Below are positions 1-33,837 of a DNA stretch of 41,425 nucleotides, piece by piece. Position numbers and translations under genes: made by a program. The notes under the pieces are model-generated. The model had not been told where the DNA came from and made no database searches. It was given only the letters and a program-made list of their open reading frames with translations. This stretch comes from a virus. Its lineage: Duplodnaviria > Caudoviricetes. The stretch covers positions 1-41,425 of the IMG/VR virus record IMGVR_UViG_3300027863_001337. The stretch is one strand, 5' to 3'. Each line of letters begins with the position of its first letter. Position 1 is the stretch's first letter.

Positions 1-112
1 ATATATATACCAAAAACTTCTCTAGTTTGGAAAACCTTTTAAAAATCTTATTGTTCCTACTTGGCACAAAAACTAATTCAATGTTCCACTTGTTGCTTTC
101 TGTGGAACAATT

Positions 113-910
113 TTAAAATAAAGGTCGTATAGTATTTTTAAGTCGCCTAACTGCTATATCACAATATTCTTTGTTAATTTCTATACCTATACCTTGTCTG
201 CCTAACTCTTTACAGGCGACCAAAGTAGTACCACTCCCCATAAAAGGGTCAAGAACAAGGTCGTTTTTATTAGTATGATAATTAAGTATATCTTTTAATA
301 ATTTTACGGGTTTTTGAGTAGGATGTTCCGTTCTTTCATTACCTTGACATATTGGATGAACAAAAACATTATGTTTTTGCCCTAATTGGTAGTTAAAAGT
401 ATGTCCTGCTCCTGTATTTTTAGTAGCCCAAGTGAGAAATTCACAAGCAGACATATAACCTACCTTAAAAATTTGAGGAACAGGATTTGTTTTGTGCCAT
501 ACTAAAGTTTGTCTTACATGAAATCCAATACCCAACATAATCGATTCAAAAAAAGAAATTTCAGACTTAGAGTAAAAAGAAATAATCTGCCCATTCATTT
601 TTAATATACGATAACTTTCTTTTAACCATTTTTCTGCAAATTCTAATTGCTCATCTACACTATTATAAAAATCCCATTTACCAAAATCATAACAAAGTTC
701 ACTAACTTTATCTTGCCGTTTAGATACTAAGCGTCTAATTTTACGATTTTGAATTTTAGACCTATCTATTTTCCTTTCTTTTTGACTAATATTATACGGT
801 GGGTCAGTCAATACAAGGTCTATTGACTCATCTGGTATTTCTTTCATAATCTCTAGACAATCACCTAAATAAATCTTTATCCCTTCTTCTTCGTAATAAG
901 AAGTAATCAT
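113..910 (-). CDS. DNA methyltransferase, N4-C/N6-A beta class, intact
   Basis: GDCLE start, DLVLTDPPY (motif IV), HPTQKP, VLDPFMGSGTT (motif I), GIEIN. Confidence 0.93.
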   Translation of the reverse strand: MITSYYEEEGIKIYLGDCLEIMKEIPDESIDLVLTDPPYNISQKERKIDRSKIQNRKIRRLVSKRQDKVSELCYDFGKWDFYNSVDEQLEFAEKWLKESYRILKMNGQIISFYSKSEISFFESIMLGIGFHVRQTLVWHKTNPVPQIFKVGYMSACEFLTWATKNTGAGHTFNYQLGQKHNVFVHPICQGNERTEHPTQKPVKLLKDILNYHTNKNDLVLDPFMGSGTTLVACKELGRQGIGIEINKEYCDIAVRRLKNTIRPLF

Positions 911-912
911 TC

Positions 913-1203
913 CTAAAATAAACTTCCCATTGTAGCGTCTATCCTTCGTTCTGCTATTTTTACATAGTCAGGGTCTTTTTCTATTAAGATATAACTTCTT
1001 CCTGTTTTCTTACACGCCATACCTGTAGTTCCACTTCCAGCAAAGGGGTCTAAAACTATGCCACCTGTGGGAGTTTTGGTTAAGATACAAAGATATTCCA
1101 TAAGTTTAAGGGGTTTGACTGTCGGATGGTCATTACGAAATTCTTTAAAATATTTTTTATATTTTTCTGGTAGTTGATTATATTGTTCTTTTGAGATAAT
1201 CAT
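913..1203 (-). CDS. Split DNA methyltransferase fragment 3 (SAM-binding C-terminus, 96 aa)
   Basis: NDHPTVKP and VLDPFAGSGTTG, no DPPY. ATG at 1203 overlaps the TGA of the upstream HNH (ATGA), so it is preferred over the ORF-track start at 1230. Confidence 0.88.
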   Translation of the reverse strand: MIISKEQYNQLPEKYKKYFKEFRNDHPTVKPLKLMEYLCILTKTPTGGIVLDPFAGSGTTGMACKKTGRSYILIEKDPDYVKIAERRIDATMGSLF

Positions 1204-1883
1204 TTTTTTATCATTATTGTATTGTGGCATTTTTTACATAAAGTAATGCCATTATTTATATCCCATAATTCCCGACACTTTAAAGCATCATACATTGTTT
1301 GAATATTATTTTCTTTTATAATTTCCGACAATTGTTTTTTATGATGAACATTTAAGTTTCCGCCTCTTTTATCCCCACACATTTGACAGGTAAAGTTATC
1401 TCTTTTATAAACATTAAGCTTCCATTGAATATATTTTTTTGAACTTCTTATCTTATTATTTATAGTAGAAGTTCCACCTTTCCATCCATAACCATTTTCT
1501 CCTATACAAAACTTACTTTGCCACTCCCCAAAACATTTTCTTGAACAAAAATTTCTTTTTGTCTTTTTAATCTGTGATATTTTTTTTCTAAATTCTCTGC
1601 CACACCAATCGCATTGCACAATCTTGGTATTTTTTTGTGTATTATACCGATGATAACAATCAGAAGAACAAAAATTATGTTTTCTTATTCTACTATTCCG
1701 AATTCTAAATACCTTACCACAATAATCACATTTTACTTCTGAACTTTTATGCTGTGTATTCCACTTATGTTGACAAGATAAACTACAAAATTTACGCTTA
1801 TAATAAGAGTTAATACTTTCATTTTTGCGTTTGATAATTTCTGACCCACAGTATTCACAATATTTTTTCCTATATATCTTCAT
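1200..1883 (-). CDS. HNH homing endonuclease (gene-splitting element B)
   Basis: Three CxxCG...FCSxxC repeats, WKGG, RDNFTCQMCG...VHH...NGITLCKKCH. Confidence 0.9.
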   Translation of the reverse strand: MKIYRKKYCEYCGSEIIKRKNESINSYYKRKFCSLSCQHKWNTQHKSSEVKCDYCGKVFRIRNSRIRKHNFCSSDCYHRYNTQKNTKIVQCDWCGREFRKKISQIKKTKRNFCSRKCFGEWQSKFCIGENGYGWKGGTSTINNKIRSSKKYIQWKLNVYKRDNFTCQMCGDKRGGNLNVHHKKQLSEIIKENNIQTMYDALKCRELWDINNGITLCKKCHNTIMIKK

Positions 1884-1889
1884 ACAATG

Positions 1890-1918
1890 ATTATACTATA
1901 CTTATTTAGCAAAATCAA
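1890..1918 (-). promoter_or_regulatory. Sigma70-type promoter for HNH 1200-1883, probably leaderless
   Basis: TTGATT(1918-1913)-N17-TATAAT(1895-1890), 6 nt before the ATG at 1883; no SD. Confidence 0.65.
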
Positions 1919-2783
1919 GTATTTTCTTTATTTCCTCAACTATTTCTTGTGGAGTTTCGCTTCTTAAAATATATCCCTCTAAACCTTGCGAACGCTCTTT
2001 TCTACTTGCCTTCGCTACATAGAAAAAGCGATTATTGTTTATGTTCTGCTCTATATCGTTTGTGATATTCGTTCCAGTGTTCTCTATTTGCTTCACGCCA
2101 TTTTTTAAGTTCTGCTCTTGCACAATCCTTACAATATCCTCCAAAAGTTCCAGCAGTTCGTTTCCAAAAATTATCAAGTGTTTTATATTGTCCACATTTC
2201 TGGCATTTTCGGTATTCCACTCCTTCAATAATTTTATAATCTGCTCGCAATTTTCCGTGAAGTAATCTATGCTCGTGGCGAGAAAGACATTGTAAGTTTT
2301 CAATTCTATCATCTGTTGTATCAAGGTTGATATGATGGATTTCATATCCTTTTGGAAGTTTTCCATTTTGCTTTTCCCAAATATAAACTGCTCTACGCTT
2401 TGAGTATATTTTTCTGCTTCCTTTATCACGCCATTTAACATACCACCGATTTTCTGATTTTCTAAAATATTCCCACATATTGTCTCCTTTAAATAAATTA
2501 CTCTATCTGTATTATACATAGAAAAATCTAATAAGTCTACCTTTATATTTTTCACAAAGCGAGAAGCACCACCTGTATCGCCATAACCTGGGTCGCCCTT
2601 TTGATAATTATTTCCACACATATTTAACATAGACCCTTTATTACCAATTCTGCCACCAGTTGATTTACTTATTCCACTCTGTTCGTCTAACATATAACAC
2701 GGACACCCTGGATCGTGTTTTAATTCAAATAAATCCTGTAATTCTTTTGGCATTTTTTCAAAAATTTCTTTATCAATCTTCAT
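1902..2783 (-). CDS. Split DNA methyltransferase fragment 2 (293 aa) carrying an in-frame 177-codon insertion
   Basis: CPCYMLDEQSG, GDTGGASRF and FFYVAKASRKER are typical of this phage MTase family. ATG at 2783 overlaps the end of HNH 2773-3357. Confidence 0.82.
   Translation of the reverse strand: MKIDKEIFEKMPKELQDLFELKHDPGCPCYMLDEQSGISKSTGGRIGNKGSMLNMCGNNYQKGDPGYGDTGGASRFVKNIKVDLLDFSMYNTDRVIYLKETICGNILENQKIGGMLNGVIKEAEKYTQSVEQFIFGKSKMENFQKDMKSIISTLIQQMIELKTYNVFLATSIDYFTENCEQIIKLLKEWNTENARNVDNIKHLIIFGNELLELLEDIVRIVQEQNLKNGVKQIENTGTNITNDIEQNINNNRFFYVAKASRKERSQGLEGYILRSETPQEIVEEIKKILDFAK
2032..2478 (-). CDS. HNH endonuclease nested out of frame inside MTase fragment 2
   Basis: EIHHINLDTTDDRIENLQCLSRHEH plus C-terminal CQKC...YCKDC; SD AAGGAG before the ATG. 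Confidence 0.88.
   Translation of the reverse strand: MWEYFRKSENRWYVKWRDKGSRKIYSKRRAVYIWEKQNGKLPKGYEIHHINLDTTDDRIENLQCLSRHEHRLLHGKLRADYKIIEGVEYRKCQKCGQYKTLDNFWKRTAGTFGGYCKDCARAELKKWREANREHWNEYHKRYRAEHKQ
2511..2539 (-). promoter_or_regulatory. Internal promoter for HNH 2032-2478
   Basis: TAGACT(2539-2534)-N17-TATAAT(2516-2511), inside the insertion. Confidence 0.55.
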
Positions 2784-3357
2784 ATTTTTTTCCGTGAATT
2801 TTATAATGGCATTTTTTACATAAAGTAATTCCATTGTCTATATTCCAAAGTGCTTCACAATTTCTGGCATCATCTAATGTTTTAATATTATAATCCTTTA
2901 TCAATTTTGCTAATCCTATTTTATGATGAACTTCTAAATTTTTAGTGCTTTTACATATCTGACACTCATAATTATCTCTTTTCAATACTGATTTAATCCA
3001 TTTTAAATTTTCAGCACAAGTTCTAATAGCAAGTTGTAATTTAGATATTCCCCCTTTCCAATTGTAATGATTTACTCCTCTTATTTTTAACCCTCTTATT
3101 TGTGCTACCTCTGAATGTTTTTGATAAAATAATTTAACACTTTTAGCTCTCTTTTGTTTTTCTTCTAATGTATTTTTATGTCCTTTTTTTATTAATCCTT
3201 TTTGTCTACCAAGTTTTAGATTTGGTGATGGTTGTCTTCTTTTATACAATTCCGACCGACATTCAGCACAGCAAAACTCTCTTCCTTCTTTAAATTCAGA
3301 TGGTCTTCTATAAAGTGGTTTCCCGCATATTGAACATTTTGTATTAGGTGTTCTCAT
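2773..3357 (-). CDS. HNH homing endonuclease (gene-splitting element A)
   Basis: CSICG...FCCAEC, WKGG, RDNYECQIC...EVHH...NGITLCKKCH; C-terminal half clearly paralogous to 1200-1883. Confidence 0.9.
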   Translation of the reverse strand: MRTPNTKCSICGKPLYRRPSEFKEGREFCCAECRSELYKRRQPSPNLKLGRQKGLIKKGHKNTLEEKQKRAKSVKLFYQKHSEVAQIRGLKIRGVNHYNWKGGISKLQLAIRTCAENLKWIKSVLKRDNYECQICKSTKNLEVHHKIGLAKLIKDYNIKTLDDARNCEALWNIDNGITLCKKCHYKIHGKKYED

Positions 3358-5848
3358 ATAACCAATTCATTAACTTTTTCTTTTGTTCTTCTGTTATACC
3401 ACTTTTTAATTTATAATCGCAATCACAAGAAATCACCAGATTAGCGGGAAAACGCCCTTGATTTGTATAATAATTTGTATCACTACCCCTATCTGGTTCA
3501 CCACCCGCAAAAGTTCCTTTAGGTGCGTGATGTGCTTGGATTTTTTCAATCCCTATTCTTGCTTCGTTAATGTTTAACCCTGCCACTCCCCATTTCAAAG
3601 CATTATTAACAAAATTTTTATCATTTGGTTTTATTGCCCATATAATCGGCTCAAATGCTGGCTTTAAAGCAGTTCCGTATCCAATCCATAAGTTCGCTTG
3701 TTCATTTCTAAAAGGTGGTTTTCTTCTCATTTCCTCGCCAGTATCTCTATAAACCCATTTATTATCTTTTCTTTCACATAACTCTTGTTCAAATTGTAAC
3801 GCTATATTTAGAGATTTCGGAAAGCCACTATTGCCTGTAATAAAAATTTTGCCGTTTCTTCTGGCTACAAAAGCACCCGTCGGAACTTCTACACACCATA
3901 CATTCCCTTTATATTCAATTTCTTCAATTTTTGCTCTTGTGCTTCGTATAGTTTGTGTTCTTTGTTGTTTTGAAATAATATAAGATTCTCTATTCTGTTG
4001 TCTTGAGAATTGTGATTGATATGATGAACCACTTCCGTTCTTAATAATGGTCTGCCCAATTTTTGTGCTATTATAAGCCGATGTTCCATAACATAACCAT
4101 CTTTCCGAGCCATAATTGAAAATTCTTTTGGACATCTGACATATTTTATTGGCAAATAATTCCCGTGTTTTCTGAAATAGGTTACTCCACCTTTCCAAGA
4201 CGGGTTGTTTGCCCCAGTCATTTTTTGGCGATAACTTTCTAAACTCTTTTCTGTCCAATTTTTTCTGCCTAAATATCCTATCTTCTTTAACCAATCTTTT
4301 GCTTTTCCCGCACAATGTCTTGAACAATAATGGTTGTTGCTCTTTTTTATCCAAGCCAAAGGAAGCCAAAAATCTTTGCCACAAATCGGACATTTTATTT
4401 TTTTCATCTTTCTTTCTCGTAATGGCTTCTTCTTCTTGCTTTTTTGTATTGCTATTTTGAGACACTCTTTTGAGCAAATCTGATTTCTTAATGCCTGTGT
4501 GTGATTGAAAGTCATAAATGGTTTCTGGCAAATCTTGCAAACTTTCCAATATGGGTATATTTTCTTCTGGTTGAAGTGTCTCTGCCCTTTGAAATATAAA
4601 TTTTCCTTCTCGTTCAATAAGGATACGATGGTTTCTGGAGACAATTTGGTCTGTAAAATCTGATTTAATTCTGTAAGCGGGATATTCGTTTTCATACAAA
4701 AATTTTCTTGTTGGTTTGTGAAACTCAAAATTATCATTATTTACATTATAACATAATACAGGATACTTATCAATGTCTTTATGGTAATGTTCCCACCCGT
4801 TAATAGTAAGTATTTCAGTATCTTCTGACAAACAACCATAGACCCACATTAGCGTATCTTTTATTACAAACCCCGCATCCTCTAATCCACAAGCCAATCT
4901 ATGAAATGTTCTTGTTCCACCAAAACATAAAAGAGTTGCACCGGGCTTGGCTACCCGTAAGCATTCTTTTGCCCATTGATAATTAAAATTTTCTACTAAT
5001 AAGTTGGGGATTGTTTTCTGCTTTTTGATGGCAAACAACGCACAAAGTAATGAGGTTAGATAAGGAATTTTCTCGTGTCTCTCTATATTTTCTGATATGA
5101 TGACACTGAATTTCTTTTCTTTGACATTTTTTTCCGCATAATTGACAAGTGTAATTATCTCGTTTATAGACAATTTTTCTGATTTGTTCCCAGTCACTTC
5201 CTCTAAAGCATCGTTTATTTTGAGACCTTCCATCAATGTAAGATGGATTATTCTTTCCTTGCATTTTTTTACTTTTATCTTTCTCATAACACCGCCGAGA
5301 GCAGAATTTTTGATTTCTCTTTTTAGCAATGAAATCGGTATTACAAACAATACATTTTCTTTGTCTCCATTCGGGAATAGGTCGTTTTTTATAAGGTTTC
5401 CGCACCACTCTTTTAACAATTCCAGCAGTTCTTGCTTTGTAATGACAATCGCTTGAGCAAAATCTCTTTTTAGACGATTTTGTAACTTCAAAAGACTTTT
5501 TACATAACTCACATCTTCTAACTTCTCTTCTTTTGCTACTAATTCCTTTGTATTGACACTCCCTTGAACAATAAATTCCTCTTCCCCAACGGCTTCTGGA
5601 TGGATTGGCATAAAAAACTTTTCCGCAAAATTTACAAAGTCTTTGTTCAACCATATCAATTTCATTATATCATTAATACTATCCCAAGTTAAGCCCATAA
5701 AACCAGAACTACTATCGTTAGTCAGAAAATATGGAGGGTCAGTTATAATAGTATCAATACAATTATCTGGAATATTCTTCATTACCTCTATGCAGTCCCC
5801 ATTTATCACTTTATTAACAAAATCATCTGGATATTTCATTTTACCCAC
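3344..5848 (-). CDS. Split DNA methyltransferase fragment 1 (catalytic DPPY) with an intein and a further in-frame insertion
   Basis: GDCIEVM, IITDPPY, FMGLTWD, WAKECLRVAKPGA, FGGTRTFHR, MWVYG|SGFPKS, GTALKPAFEPI, GRFPANL; lacks the FxGxG motif, which is in 913-1203. Confidence 0.9.
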   Translation of the reverse strand: MGKMKYPDDFVNKVINGDCIEVMKNIPDNCIDTIITDPPYFLTNDSSSGFMGLTWDSINDIMKLIWLNKDFVNFAEKFFMPIHPEAVGEEEFIVQGSVNTKELVAKEEKLEDVSYVKSLLKLQNRLKRDFAQAIVITKQELLELLKEWCGNLIKNDLFPNGDKENVLFVIPISLLKREIKNSALGGVMRKIKVKKCKERIIHLTLMEGLKINDALEEVTGNKSEKLSINEIITLVNYAEKNVKEKKFSVIISENIERHEKIPYLTSLLCALFAIKKQKTIPNLLVENFNYQWAKECLRVAKPGATLLCFGGTRTFHRLACGLEDAGFVIKDTLMWVYGCLSEDTEILTINGWEHYHKDIDKYPVLCYNVNNDNFEFHKPTRKFLYENEYPAYRIKSDFTDQIVSRNHRILIEREGKFIFQRAETLQPEENIPILESLQDLPETIYDFQSHTGIKKSDLLKRVSQNSNTKKQEEEAITRKKDEKNKMSDLWQRFLASFGLDKKEQQPLLFKTLCGKSKRLVKEDRIFRQKKLDRKEFRKLSPKNDWGKQPVLERWSNLFQKTRELFANKICQMSKRIFNYGSERWLCYGTSAYNSTKIGQTIIKNGSGSSYQSQFSRQQNRESYIISKQQRTQTIRSTRAKIEEIEYKGNVWCVEVPTGAFVARRNGKIFITGNSGFPKSLNIALQFEQELCERKDNKWVYRDTGEEMRRKPPFRNEQANLWIGYGTALKPAFEPIIWAIKPNDKNFVNNALKWGVAGLNINEARIGIEKIQAHHAPKGTFAGGEPDRGSDTNYYTNQGRFPANLVISCDCDYKLKSGITEEQKKKLMNWLYENT
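3889..4737 (-). CDS. HNH endonuclease nested out of frame inside the intein
   Basis: CKICQ...CSKEC, CPICG...YCSRHC, GANNPSWKGG, YVMEHRL...VVHHINHNSQDNRIENL. Confidence 0.88.
   Translation of the reverse strand: MIILSFTNQQENFCMKTNIPLTELNQILQTKLSPETIVSLLNEKENLYFKGQRHFNQKKIYPYWKVCKICQKPFMTFNHTQALRNQICSKECLKIAIQKSKKKKPLRERKMKKIKCPICGKDFWLPLAWIKKSNNHYCSRHCAGKAKDWLKKIGYLGRKNWTEKSLESYRQKMTGANNPSWKGGVTYFRKHGNYLPIKYVRCPKEFSIMARKDGYVMEHRLIIAQKLGRPLLRTEVVHHINHNSQDNRIENLILFQNNKEHKLYEAQEQKLKKLNIKGMYGV
4745..4773 (-). promoter_or_regulatory. Promoter for the intein-nested HNH, probably leaderless
   Basis: TTGATA(4773-4768)-N17-TATAAT(4750-4745) with extended TG, 7 nt before the ATG at 4737. Confidence 0.68.
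4983..5654 (-). CDS. HNH endonuclease nested out of frame inside MTase fragment 1
   Basis: Three CxxC...CSxxC repeats, GKNNPSYIDG, RDNYTCQLCG...CHHI...NLITLCVVCH. Confidence 0.88.
   Translation of the reverse strand: MVEQRLCKFCGKVFYANPSRSRWGRGIYCSRECQYKGISSKRREVRRCELCKKSFEVTKSSKKRFCSSDCHYKARTAGIVKRVVRKPYKKRPIPEWRQRKCIVCNTDFIAKKRNQKFCSRRCYEKDKSKKMQGKNNPSYIDGRSQNKRCFRGSDWEQIRKIVYKRDNYTCQLCGKKCQRKEIQCHHIRKYRETRENSLSNLITLCVVCHQKAENNPQLISRKF
5664..5692 (-). promoter_or_regulatory. Promoter for HNH 4983-5654
   Basis: TTAACT(5692-5687)-N17-TATAAT(5669-5664) with extended TG, 9 nt before the ATG. Confidence 0.55.
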
Positions 5849-5987
5849 ACAAAATCAAAATAACTGATAAAATCAATCTTACTATCCTTATGCTGTGGTC
5901 TTTCCAAAAAGTCTCTTTCCAGTGCAAAATCAAACTGTATATGCTATCAGATAATAACCAAACTCCAATGCATTTTACCCAGCACAT
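5841..5987 (-). CDS. Small hydrophobic protein (48 aa)
   Basis: SD GAGGAG then MCWVKCIGVWLLSDSIYSLILHW...RLILSVILILCG; fills the gap between genes; below the ORF-track cutoff. Confidence 0.55.
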   Translation of the reverse strand: MCWVKCIGVWLLSDSIYSLILHWKETFWKDHSIRIVRLILSVILILCG

Positions 5988-5996
5988 CTTTTCTCC

Positions 5997-6470
5997 TCAA
6001 TATACTTTTAACACCCAACTTAAAAAGTTATTTTCTTCTTTTGTGAAAATCAAATAAAAATATCTGCCATACCACCTCTTATCCTGAAGGATATGCATTC
6101 TCTTTAAACTAAATCCTCTTTGTTTTAAAGTCTCTAATCTGTTAGGGACTACCATGCTGTTTAAAAACTTAATACTTCCTAAAAAAGCGATTCCTTTCCT
6201 TGCTATTCTGCTTGCTTTTTCTAAAAACTTCCAACCTAACTGAAAAGGTGGATTTCCTACCACCCAGTCAACTTCTAAGTTCCACTCAAAGAAGTCTCTA
6301 CCTTCTTCTATCTCGCATTCGTATTTTTCCTTTTGTTTTATGTTGTTATACCATACCTTGTTTAACCCGCTACCTGCATCCAAAACTGAATCGTTTTCTC
6401 CTATTGGAGTTATTGCCAATAAATCTTTTACAGTCTCTTCTCTTGTATAGTAAAACTCTCTTGGTCTCAT
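5997..6470 (-). CDS. Small N6-adenine DNA methyltransferase-like protein
   Basis: FYYT, VLDAGSG (motif I) followed by VVGNPPF (motif IV). Confidence 0.8.
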   Translation of the reverse strand: MRPREFYYTREETVKDLLAITPIGENDSVLDAGSGLNKVWYNNIKQKEKYECEIEEGRDFFEWNLEVDWVVGNPPFQLGWKFLEKASRIARKGIAFLGSIKFLNSMVVPNRLETLKQRGFSLKRMHILQDKRWYGRYFYLIFTKEENNFLSWVLKVY

Positions 6471-6545
6471 AAAAAATAGGGCAAGGAGACCGCCTGATTT
6501 ATCTGGCGGAGGAATTGCCCATCCTCCTTTCTTAAAAAATTTCTC

Positions 6546-6574
6546 TTGATATTTTCAAATAAATGAATTATAAT
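6546..6574 (+). promoter_or_regulatory. tnpB promoter, probably leaderless
   Basis: TTGATA-N17-TATAAT, 6 nt before ATG 6581; no SD. Confidence 0.7.
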
Positions 6575-6580
6575 TAAACT

Positions 6581-7702
6581 ATGAAACTTACTTTGCAGAT
6601 AAAACTTTTGCCTGATGATACACAGTCTAAAAGCCTTATAGAAACTATTAAGGAATGTAATAAAGTTTGTAATATCATTTCTGATATTGCCTGGCAAAAT
6701 AAAACCTTTAATCAATTTAAACTTCATAATCTTGTTTATCATTCCATAAAAAAATCTTCTAAACTTTCTGCTCAAGCTCTTGTTAGATGTATTAGCAAGG
6801 TCGCTGATAGTTATAAACTTGATAAGAAAAAGAAACGAATTTTTAATCCTCTTGGAGCCATTACTTATGATGCCCGAATTCTTTCTTATAACATTGAAAA
6901 ACGAATTGTTTCTATTTGGTCTATTGATGGGAGATTGAAAATCCCTTTTATCTGCCATAATCCCAAATATCTTCCTTATATTAAAGGTGAAGCAGACCTT
7001 GTTTATAAGAAAGATAAATTTTATCTTTTTCAGACTGTAGAAGTTTCTGAAGAAGATGTTAAAGATGTTGAAGAATTTATAGGTGTAGATTTTGGTATAA
7101 CTGACATTGCCACACTGTCTGATGGAACAAAGTTTAGTTCTGAACAACTTAATAAGATTAGAGATAAATACTTTAAAGTGCGACGCTCTGTTCAACGCAA
7201 AGGCACGAAAGGAAGCAGAAAGCTTCTGAAACGGCTTAAAGGCAGAGAACAGAGATTTGCCACTATTACCAATCATACAATTAGCAAACGCATCGTAGAA
7301 AAAGCTAAAGCTGAAGGTAAAGGAATTGCTATTGAGGATTTGACCCACATTAGAGAAAGAACTACTGTAAGAAAGGCACAGAGGCGGAAACATCACTCTT
7401 GGGCTTTTAGGCAACTCCGTTTCTTTCTTGAATATAAGGCAAGGCTTGCTGGTATTCCTCTCGTTGTTGTTGACCCTAATTACACTTCTCAGATTTGTAG
7501 TGTATGTAAGACAATTGGTAATAGAAATGGCAAGCACTTTAGTTGTCCAAGCTGTGGCAATATTATTGATGCCGATGTTAATGCGGCTAAGAATATTGCC
7601 CAGTTGGGGGCTCTTTGTGGTAAACAGCCCCGAAAGGATGTGAATATGTTGAATTTTGTTTCGCATATTCCTCCTAAAGCTGACTGCTTTAGCTGTCAGT
7701 AG
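6581..7702 (+). CDS. tnpB: RNA-guided endonuclease TnpB
   Basis: RuvC GVDFG, IAIEDL, DADVNAAKNI; zinc finger CSVC...CPSC. Confidence 0.93.
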   Translation: MKLTLQIKLLPDDTQSKSLIETIKECNKVCNIISDIAWQNKTFNQFKLHNLVYHSIKKSSKLSAQALVRCISKVADSYKLDKKKKRIFNPLGAITYDARILSYNIEKRIVSIWSIDGRLKIPFICHNPKYLPYIKGEADLVYKKDKFYLFQTVEVSEEDVKDVEEFIGVDFGITDIATLSDGTKFSSEQLNKIRDKYFKVRRSVQRKGTKGSRKLLKRLKGREQRFATITNHTISKRIVEKAKAEGKGIAIEDLTHIRERTTVRKAQRRKHHSWAFRQLRFFLEYKARLAGIPLVVVDPNYTSQICSVCKTIGNRNGKHFSCPSCGNIIDADVNAAKNIAQLGALCGKQPRKDVNMLNFVSHIPPKADCFSCQ

Positions 7703-32513: not shown

Positions 32514-32661
32514 ATTTTCCTCTAATTATTTGCCCCTAACTGTAATCCAGACCTTATTTCCGAATTGAATTATTCCACAGGCAAGCTCTTTTGATTCAAG
32601 TAGAACTTTACAAAAATTTAAGCAAGAAAGCCCACGACTTCAGTCGTGGGATGAATTGCTT

Positions 32662-32690
32662 TTGACAAATTTCCTTTTTTAAGGTATGAT
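32662..32690 (+). promoter_or_regulatory. tnpB promoter, probably leaderless
   Basis: TTGACA-N17-TATGAT, 7 nt before ATG 32698. Confidence 0.7.
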
Positions 32691-32697
32691 AATAAAT

Positions 32698-33837
32698 ATG
32701 GAAAAAACCCTTAAATACAGAATATATCCGACAAGTAAACAACGAAGACTTTTGCAGGAACAGTTGAATGAGTGCCGTTGGCTTTATAACCATCTTCTTG
32801 AGCAAAGAAGAAATGCTTGGGAACAGGATAAAAAATCCATTGGTTATTTTGCTCAATGTAAATCGCTTGTTGCTTTGAAAAAAGAAAGACCGTCTCTTAA
32901 CAATGTCTATTCTCAAGTCCTTCAAGATGTTGCAGACAGAGTTGATAAGGCATTCCAGAATTTCTTTCGTAGAGTTAAAGCAGGTGAGAAAAAAGTTGGT
33001 TATCCAAGATTTAAAGGATTTGACCGCTATGATAGCCTGACTTATAAACAGGCTGGATTTGGTTGGGAAGTTAAAGATAACCGTCTTAATCTTTCTAAAA
33101 TTGGCTCTATTAAAATTAAAATCCATAGACCTATTATTGGAACTCTTAAAACTTGCACTATTAGAAGGCAGTCTGGTAAATGGTATGCTTGTTTTTCTGT
33201 TGAATATCAAAATAATCCTTTGCCCAAATCTGATGAAGCAGTTGGAATAGATGTTGGATTGGAAAGTTTTGCTACTTTGTCTACTGGCGAAAAAGTTGGC
33301 AATCCTTGCTTTTTCAAAACAGACCAGAAGGCTCTTGCAAAGGCTCAAAGAAAATTGTCTAAACAAGAGAAAGGTTCTCTTGAAAGAAAAAAAGCCAAAA
33401 AGGTAGTTGCTCATATTTACGAAAGAATATCTAACAGGCGTCATAATTTTATTCATCAGGAAGCCAGAAAAATTGTTAATCGCTTTGGCATAATTTGTAT
33501 TGAAAAACTTAATGTTAAAGGTATGATGCATAATCATACAAAAATCTTTGGTAATAAACTTAATAGAGGCATTGTGAATGTTGCTTGGGGTCAATTTGCT
33601 AACGTATTGTCGCACAAAGCGGAAGAGGCTGGTCGGCAATTTGTAGCAATAGACCCAAAGGGAACAAGTCAGATATGTAGTCAATGTGGTTCTGTTGTTG
33701 AAAAAGAACTGTCTGACCGTTGGCACGATTGTCCTGTTTGTAATGCTCATCTGCATCGTGATTATAATGCTTCTTTGAACATTTTGAGACTGGGACTACA
33801 GTCTCTGGGGTTTACCCCAAGAAGCCTACGACTTTAG
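32698..33837 (+). CDS. tnpB: RNA-guided endonuclease TnpB
   Basis: KYRIYPT N-terminus, GYPRFK, GIDVG, ICIEKL, TSQICSQCG...CPVC...HRDYNAS. Confidence 0.95.
   Translation: MEKTLKYRIYPTSKQRRLLQEQLNECRWLYNHLLEQRRNAWEQDKKSIGYFAQCKSLVALKKERPSLNNVYSQVLQDVADRVDKAFQNFFRRVKAGEKKVGYPRFKGFDRYDSLTYKQAGFGWEVKDNRLNLSKIGSIKIKIHRPIIGTLKTCTIRRQSGKWYACFSVEYQNNPLPKSDEAVGIDVGLESFATLSTGEKVGNPCFFKTDQKALAKAQRKLSKQEKGSLERKKAKKVVAHIYERISNRRHNFIHQEARKIVNRFGIICIEKLNVKGMMHNHTKIFGNKLNRGIVNVAWGQFANVLSHKAEEAGRQFVAIDPKGTSQICSQCGSVVEKELSDRWHDCPVCNAHLHRDYNASLNILRLGLQSLGFTPRSLRL

Follow-up and report, generated by a model that had tools for sequence, protein, structure and literature searches.

A viral contig of 41,425 nucleotides (nt) (Duplodnaviria, Caudoviricetes; IMG/VR record IMGVR_UViG_3300027863_001337; hereafter, the window) carries on its minus strand a DNA methyltransferase gene interrupted by five HNH endonuclease genes. 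Sequence analysis makes it probable that the gene is read as three polypeptides, which would reassemble into an active enzyme through two related, cassette-borne pairs of short peptides. Because these peptides, or tags, are homologous at both breaks, recur on other methylase fragments, and are modelled as one small domain in a naturally fused allele, they are likely to be a portable clasp.

Five HNH Cassettes in One Methyltransferase Gene

An earlier note on this DNA had proposed one methylase spread over three open reading frames (ORFs) and interrupted by five HNH ORFs. All of them were located at the place that the note had given, on the minus strand (Table 1). The host ORFs occupy positions 3344–5848, 1902–2834, and 913–1230; the likely starts of the corresponding products (pieces A, B, and C) are at 5839, 2783, and 1203, which corrects the ORF ends at 5848, 2834, and 1230. 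The five HNH ORFs match PHROG HNH families with E-values from 3e-30 to 2e-11, and all match Pfam HNH models at E ≤ 0.01; relative to the Pfam cut-off, three are clearly above, HNH5 is narrowly above, and HNH3 is below.

The host gene encodes a beta-class N6/N4 DNA methyltransferase (PF01555 match), in which motif IV (DPPY) precedes motif I (FxGxG). Two homologues without interruptions, P0002 and P0003, align in order to six host segments and leave a gap at each of the five inserts. The inserts, two of which (1 and 4) have approximate ends, total 3,733 nt; the remaining 1,194 nt correspond to 398 host codons, in agreement with the 3.7 kb and 390 codons estimated previously. As had been claimed, no motif is destroyed: the catalytic and S-adenosylmethionine (SAM)-binding motifs are all intact, and ca. 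1,220 codons of the host frame, like the five HNH ORFs, are free of stops and frameshifts. Empty alleles were found for all five sites and are common overall. The three strategies by which the gene had been thought to tolerate its inserts can also be recognized, as one intein (site 2), two read-through dual-frame inserts (sites 1 and 4), and two tagged splits (sites 3 and 5), with the correction that the intein is itself dual-frame. This last point, the common ancestry of the tags at both splits, and the promoter-like sites in front of most HNH genes had been missed.

The layout could be checked against contigs of other runs. Two DNA runs labelled as hot-spring metagenome, X1 and X2, contain 94% and 93% of sampled window words (either may be the source sample, and both may belong to one campaign); no RNA run is listed as containing it, a result without bearing on expression. 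Contigs from X1 show 0 differences from the window over 1090–2151, 2122–3485, 3582–3908, and 4811–6200, so every insert junction is covered. Contigs from X2 are likewise identical over 1090–2151, 2122–2469, 2440–3485, and 4811–6200, and these pieces span all insert junctions except the 3′ junction of the intein. As far as the contigs tell, the layout is no assembly artefact. Run X2 also contains a relative that is empty at site 3, and its intein region is about twice as deep as the flanks, which fits a second copy in a relative.

Homologous Peptide Tags at the Two Breaks

At sites 3 and 5, a free-standing HNH gene lies between two host pieces, each of which bears a tail missing from intact alleles, a layout of the type known from phage Aeh1. 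HNH3 and HNH5 are 36% identical, and 18 nt separate the stop of piece B from HNH5. Profiles built exclusively from site-5 tags (26 b tags and 6 a tags) rank four of four site-3 b tags and five of five site-3 a tags higher than no less than 99.996% of 200,000 background windows and no less than 99.96% of shuffles. Since profiles made from one site recover all tags of the other above background, the two tag pairs are homologous.

The site-3 split with the same tag pair is present in loci L048 and L081 (HNH3 type) and L028 (a different HNH type), and site-5 splits also occur in L169 and L170. A profile search with tag b, run on 831 candidates, retrieved 67 proteins: 55 other site-5 C-fragments, 4 other site-3 fragments, 2 proteins with the tag directly before the SAM-binding motif (P0158 and P0165, a possible third clasp site), 1 fused allele, 3 proteins from this phage, and 2 HEAT-repeat proteins that we take as chance matches. 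Apart from the latter two, none of the 67 is a non-methylase host; the seed tags were themselves methylase-borne. Among the loci read out, none has both splits, and none of those fetched has a gene with two clasp pairs; L048 and L028 combine the site-3 split with nested elements.

Tag b has no match among 50,697 GenBank phage records. The 55-amino acid (aa) fused tag region yielded one phmmer match among 1.84 billion representatives, a site-5 fragment too weakly matched to inform, and a genome-contig scan with it gave two loci, both chance. Viral DNA-pattern scans returned eight loci for the HNH3 start and six for tag b, two of them real in each case and neither new; the scan with the site-3 tag a region returned 14 loci, and none of the four read out carries the tag. 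In an atlas search, tag b fell near viral clusters at 0.90–0.91 with few shared features, which was not usable.

Tag b is on average 77% identical among 52 bearers, versus 48% for the adjacent host segment, in an ungapped comparison that understates the host figure. The C-segment of the window is nearest to an empty allele (89%), the closest tagged allele reaching 79%. The ratio of nonsynonymous to synonymous substitution rates (dN/dS) of the tags against four related tags is 0.02–0.49; here and below, dN/dS is pairwise and averages over both lineages, with 15–83 codons for host segments and tags and several synonymous distances near saturation.

AlphaFold modelling of P0127, a natural fused allele at locus L002, predicts that the two tags, joined there, form an ordered strand-helix-strand-helix-helix-strand unit at residues 391–430 (confidence score pLDDT, 77–87), with strands contributed by both halves. 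This model is the sole structural support for tag pairing. In the same model, sites 3 and 4 adjoin loops of low confidence, and the stretch that contains the intein site is conserved and well ordered. Split inteins were considered as the source of the tags and rejected: the tags are only 21–23 aa long and are devoid of the end motifs of Hint halves (Asn before Cys, Ser, or Thr). The site-3 split also parts a Cys-x-Cys motif (3416–3424) from a His/Cys cluster (2700–2720), and the two are near each other in P0002; if they bind metal, the site would span pieces A and B.

An Intein Overprinted by an HNH Gene

The element at site 2 has the features expected of an intein, namely Cys1, a block B histidine (His69), a terminal Asn335, and a serine at +1, and is inserted between two codons of a conserved site. 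Cys1, His69, the terminal Gly-Asn, and the +1 Ser are invariant in five of five aligned copies, and the penultimate residue is Gly rather than His in all five. A profile search matched the AceL NrdHF intein, whose structure is solved (4.2e-06), and in Foldseek, the predicted model, whose confident parts are limited to the two splicing ends, matches inteins and Hint domains best. The intein models of Pfam and NCBIfam gave no match to the site-2 intein. Compared with L048, dN/dS is 0.03 at the C-terminal end (19 codons) and 0.31 at the N-terminal end; in the overlap, it is 0.75 for the intein frame and 0.30 for the HNH2 frame, making the HNH frame the constrained one. From the motifs and the value at the C-terminal end, we infer that the intein is removed by protein splicing.

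In its own frame, the intein is 88% identical to that of P0025, which resides in another host allele, so elements of this kind move ready-made. Out-of-frame HNH versions occupy the same site in L007, L048, and L062. In L003, P0016, P0036, and P0062, the intein at this site is without this HNH gene and has a LAGLIDADG-type core (PF14528 in the latter three), which suggests that the HNH gene replaced the usual intein nuclease.

Open Host Frames under the Nested HNH Genes

The host frame contains no stops under HNH1, HNH2, and HNH4, versus 9.3, 26.2, and 5.9 expected from resampling the synonymous codons of each HNH gene with window codon usage (0 of 5,000 draws each). In the internal controls, i.e., the third frame of the same three genes and the two alternative frames of HNH3 and of HNH5, stops are about as numerous as expected. 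The contrast between these frames indicates that read-through of the host frame was selected at some time.

Inserts 1 and 4 resemble the ShiLan type: the host frame is stop-free, the HNH gene lies in another frame, and there is no intein or intron signature. Introns of groups I and II were tried as candidates and rejected, there being no covariance-model match better than E 1.5 (Rfam, positions 1–7000) and no host-frame stops in the nested inserts. HNH genes nested in this way are also present, at other positions, in L008, L012, L020, L028, L048, and L076 (homologues chosen by eye among 80 viral loci). For site 1, there are three distant HNH relatives and a piece at 95% in run X4, with no close occupied allele among the fetched loci. 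The site-1 loop carries an in-frame LAGLIDADG-type domain without intein ends in P0007 and in L011 (5249–7249). In L005 (3130–5415), a terminase-like ORF has an intein-like insert with an HNH4-like match in another frame at 4893–5114.

Promoter-Like Sites Upstream of HNH Genes

Sites resembling σ70 promoters, defined as consensus matches (of 12 positions) and not as mapped starts, precede four of the HNH genes. All four minus-strand sites with at least 10 of 12 matches in positions 1–6600 fall within 32 nt of an HNH start, whereas ca. 0.65% of positions have such a site that near. HNH1, HNH2, and HNH5 look leaderless or nearly so, and HNH4 has a Shine-Dalgarno-like sequence. HNH3 overlaps the upstream stop and has a weaker site only. 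In other loci, a −10 box is found 6–8 nt upstream of 5 of 13 HNH starts chosen by eye, two of these with a perfect −35 element at 16 nt.

Table 1. Host segments, inserts, HNH genes, tags, and promoter-like sites of the methyltransferase locus, in the direction of the gene
Feature	Positions	Strand	Remarks
Host segment 1	5678–5839	minus	motif IV (DPPY); likely ATG at 5839; 61% identity to P0003 1–48
σ70-like site before HNH1	5664–5692	minus	10/12; −10 ends 9 nt before ATG
Insert 1	5000–5677	minus	host-frame read-through, ~226 codons; no PHROG match; ends approximate
HNH1	4983–5654	minus	223 aa; +2 frame relative to host; Pfam HNH 1.7e-08
Host segment 2	4835–4999	minus	WAKECLRV to VYG; 76% identity to P0003 83–137
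Intein (site 2)	3830–4834	minus	335 aa; Cys1 to Gly-Asn, then Ser; centre overprinted by HNH2
σ70-like site before HNH2	4745–4773	minus	11/12 with TG; −10 ends 7 nt before ATG
HNH2	3889–4737	minus	282 aa; +1 frame, inside intein; Pfam HNH_3 1e-08
Host segment 3	3416–3829	minus	SGFPKS to GRFPANL; 66% identity to P0002 146–295
Site-3 tag a	3344–3415	minus	piece A ends in this 23-aa tail and a stop; 14-nt overlap with HNH3 start
HNH3	2773–3357	minus	194 aa; free-standing between pieces A and B; PHROG HNH 5e-12; 52% identical relative at same site in L081
Site-3 tag b	2721–2783	minus	piece B begins with this 21-aa head; 11-nt overlap of its start with HNH3 end
Host segment 4	2556–2720	minus	LDEQSG to GGASRF; 93% identity to uninterrupted P0011 649–694
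Insert 4	2034–2555	minus	host-frame read-through, ~174 codons; ends approximate; flanking 7-nt direct repeat restores RF dipeptide (junction DNA)
σ70-like site before HNH4	2511–2539	minus	10/12; 32 nt before ATG; then Shine-Dalgarno-like AAGGAG
HNH4	2032–2478	minus	148 aa; +2 frame; Pfam HNH_3 7e-15
Host segment 5	1974–2033	minus	FYVAKAS; 79% identity to P0002 351–369
Site-5 tag a	1902–1973	minus	23-aa C-terminal tail of piece B, then stop
σ70-like site before HNH5	1890–1918	minus	10/12; −10 ends 6 nt before ATG; −35 inside tag a
HNH5	1200–1883	minus	227 aa; free-standing between pieces B and C; relatives at same site in L169 and L170
Site-5 tag b	1141–1203	minus	21-aa N-terminal head of piece C; ATGA overlap (4 nt) with HNH5 stop
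Host segment 6	913–1140	minus	HPTVKP and SAM-binding DPFAGSGT; Pfam N6_N4_Mtase 4.9e-22; 86% identity to P0002 394–463

Selection on the Host Gene and Alternative Explanations

Against empty alleles, dN/dS is 0.15 for host segment 1, 0.14 for segment 2, 0.12–0.29 for the 3′ part of segment 3, 0.06 for segment 4, and 0.29 for segment 6. These ratios are compatible with a working gene.

The explanation that best survives beside ours is that the gene is dead or dying, five pre-adapted elements having piled up by homing in a dispensable methylase, so that the open frames are inherited and no active enzyme is made. The two adjacent methylase genes are in line with it, as are the mobility of ready-made elements indicated by the P0025 intein, the broken allele L170, which carries the same cassette, and the description of such methylases as non-essential in PMC9957025 and PMC11855218. 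Its difficulty lies in the stop-free frames and intact motifs described above, and in the excess of the proportion of synonymous differences (pS) over that of nonsynonymous ones (pN) in segment 6 compared with L001 (pS 0.125, pN 0.038) and in segment 4 compared with L174 (pS 0.37, pN 0.03). We consider a dead gene unlikely, though deserving serious attention.

A second explanation concerns the tags: they would be halves of a native accessory mini-domain of some methylase alleles, into the middle of which an HNH gene was inserted, the halves re-associating afterwards, and would not be element-borne. Such a domain would account for the intact fused allele, for the variation of the HNH gene between the tags (L028), and for another small in-frame insert at site 5, the first residues of which resemble tag a (L011, 6902–7048; L013, 408–554). 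Yet homologous tags stand at two host sites with unrelated flanks, and fused forms amount to 1 of the 67 matches, as compared to 61 split forms from other sources. Moreover, the fused allele keeps a Met at the start of tag b, and the residues before it resemble the out-of-frame HNH end of the split allele P0128, suggesting that this allele lost its HNH gene. A native origin is thus improbable. Removal of some inserts at the RNA or ribosome level, by an unrecognized self-splicing intron or by translational bypassing, to give one continuous polypeptide is very improbable. The 7-nt repeat around insert 4 speaks for it. Against it, the three matches of the Rfam scan are due to chance (E 1.5 or worse), the HNH ORF and tags fill the split cassettes so far that a ribozyme core would not fit, and neither a host frame free of stops nor conserved tags that start with codons of their own would be needed.

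Several observations weigh against the reassembly of three tagged pieces into an active methylase. The tag searches were seeded mostly with site-5 words, and few sequences cover tag a in the fused-allele model. A tree built from the 62 residues of the C-segment (87 rows, thinned at 85% identity) leaves a single origin of tagged alleles unrejected (approximately unbiased test, p = 0.089; 19 label changes, no starred branch), so homing of the site-5 cassette is only suggested. In L170, the site-5 cassette is accompanied by frameshifted host pieces; such alleles may therefore decay, and the frameshifts are either an outcome of decay or an assembly error. The pairwise dN/dS values come from few codons, several of them being near saturation, and do not tell whether selection acted in this lineage; moreover, an element acquired by homing brings a frame that is already open. 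About 400 residues of overprinted read-through would remain in the product. Only 5 of the 13 HNH starts of other loci have a −10 box 6–8 nt upstream, and 4 of the 13 have none within 75 nt. Finally, two further methylase genes flank this one, because of which it may be dispensable.

A Proposed Three-Chain Enzyme

In the reading that we prefer, the intein would be removed from piece A (831 aa) by protein splicing, and the product of insert 1 would be kept as a surface loop; piece B (293 aa) would retain that of insert 4 as a loop. Tags 3a and 3b, and tags 5a and 5b, would each rebuild a mini-domain of ~40 residues with a beta-alpha-beta-alpha-alpha-beta fold at their break, so that the piece with the catalytic DPPY motif would meet the one that binds SAM. 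Translation of pieces B and C would be coupled to the HNH stop upstream of each. HNH1, HNH2, and HNH5 may each have a transcript of their own that is leaderless or almost so, the transcript of HNH4 may have a leader, and HNH3 may be expressed by coupling; each nuclease likely spreads by cutting empty alleles at its own site. Each part of this mechanism is plausible, and we lean towards the view that the enzyme works as described.

More tentatively, and with rather more doubt than belief, we propose that a portable mini-domain, divided in two, travels with HNH cassettes, does the work of a split intein without splicing, and can be inserted at different sites of host proteins; here, two diverged pairs without cross-pairing would build a three-chain methyltransferase, with promoters hidden in the host frame driving the nucleases. 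If the clasp exists, it would be a third general way, beside introns and inteins, for selfish nucleases to spare the host gene, and a recognizable sequence family instead of one-off tails as in Aeh1 nrdA. Two pairs in one gene would provide a natural test of orthogonality and would yield 20-residue protein-joining tags. The promoter-like sites make the expression of hidden out-of-frame HNH genes directly testable. The locus also illustrates that annotation overlooks nested nucleases and takes split methylases for pseudogenes.

Neighbouring Genes

The window is a single contig with phage-type replication genes (DNA polymerase A, helicases, primase, single-stranded DNA-binding protein, and resolvase); virion-protein matches are weak and lie at one window end. 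Three methyltransferase genes follow each other on the minus strand at 113–910, 913–5848, and 5997–6470, the match of the last being weak (E 0.003). Antisense to each of the two tnpB genes of the window runs an ORF free of stops (399 and 382 aa), the pairs being 6467–7666 (minus) under 6581–7702 (plus) and 32608–33756 (minus) under 32686–33837 (plus); the first tnpB-associated ORF ends in a 4-nt overlap with the start of the small methylase gene at 5997–6470. The ORF at 20072–22360 (minus) encodes a family A DNA polymerase with an N-terminal uracil-DNA-glycosylase-like domain.

Comparison with Known Systems

All three strategies have precedents in the literature, namely the ShiLan domain, nucleases encoded out of frame in inteins, and the Aeh1 nrdA tails. 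Open-access PMC and bioRxiv texts yielded no paper on tails that form a conserved family, on a methyltransferase split by an HNH gene, or on a single gene with five elements.

Read-through inserts that hide HNH genes in phage methylases are described in PMC11855218 and PMC9957025. Like the ShiLan element, inserts 1 and 4 have a stop-free methylase frame, carry in the third frame an HNH gene with zinc fingers, show no signature of splicing, and lie in a host of the same Pfam family; the likeness is one of layout and host family. Up to three ShiLan-type inserts are known in one methylase, whereas here two stand together with three other HNH elements. The ShiLan-type paper, in which the words “promoter” and “split” are absent, left production of the HNH protein open and proposed leaderless initiation; in the window, a promoter-like site is found just upstream of each nested HNH gene.

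Homing endonuclease genes out of frame within inteins are known from bioRxiv 10.1101/2025.01.02.630785, and that preprint describes, as in the window, splicing ends around a same-strand nuclease gene in another frame. There, an endonuclease VII-like gene lies in frame 3, in polymerase, capsid, terminase, and thymidylate synthase hosts; the window intein has an HNH_3-type gene in frame +1 and a methylase host, at a site that elsewhere also has a LAGLIDADG-type core.

The enzyme itself resembles beta-class amino-methyltransferases (CcrM, M.BceJIV, M.RsrI, M.MboII, and M.PvuII), in which DPPY precedes FxGxG and which the fused-allele model matches at E-values of 1e-12 to 1e-5; unlike them, it is encoded in three pieces with long variable loops.

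For the splits, the closest parallel is nrdA-a/mobE/nrdA-b of Aeromonas phage Aeh1, where, according to PMC3045599 and PMC2988022, element-derived tails rescue a split enzyme. In both cases, a free-standing HNH gene splits an enzyme gene, short tails are present on both pieces, starts and stops overlap, and no splicing is involved. The Aeh1 tails, according to PMC3045599, have no database matches, are expected to vary by case, and are needed for the tetramer but not for the a/b heterodimer. The window tails, in contrast, belong to a conserved family present on ~60 other fragments, occur at two sites and as two pairs in one gene, and are predicted to form a joint domain. What sets this gene apart is that five elements are stacked in it and one tag family serves twice, implying an enzyme of three chains and a problem of pairing specificity.

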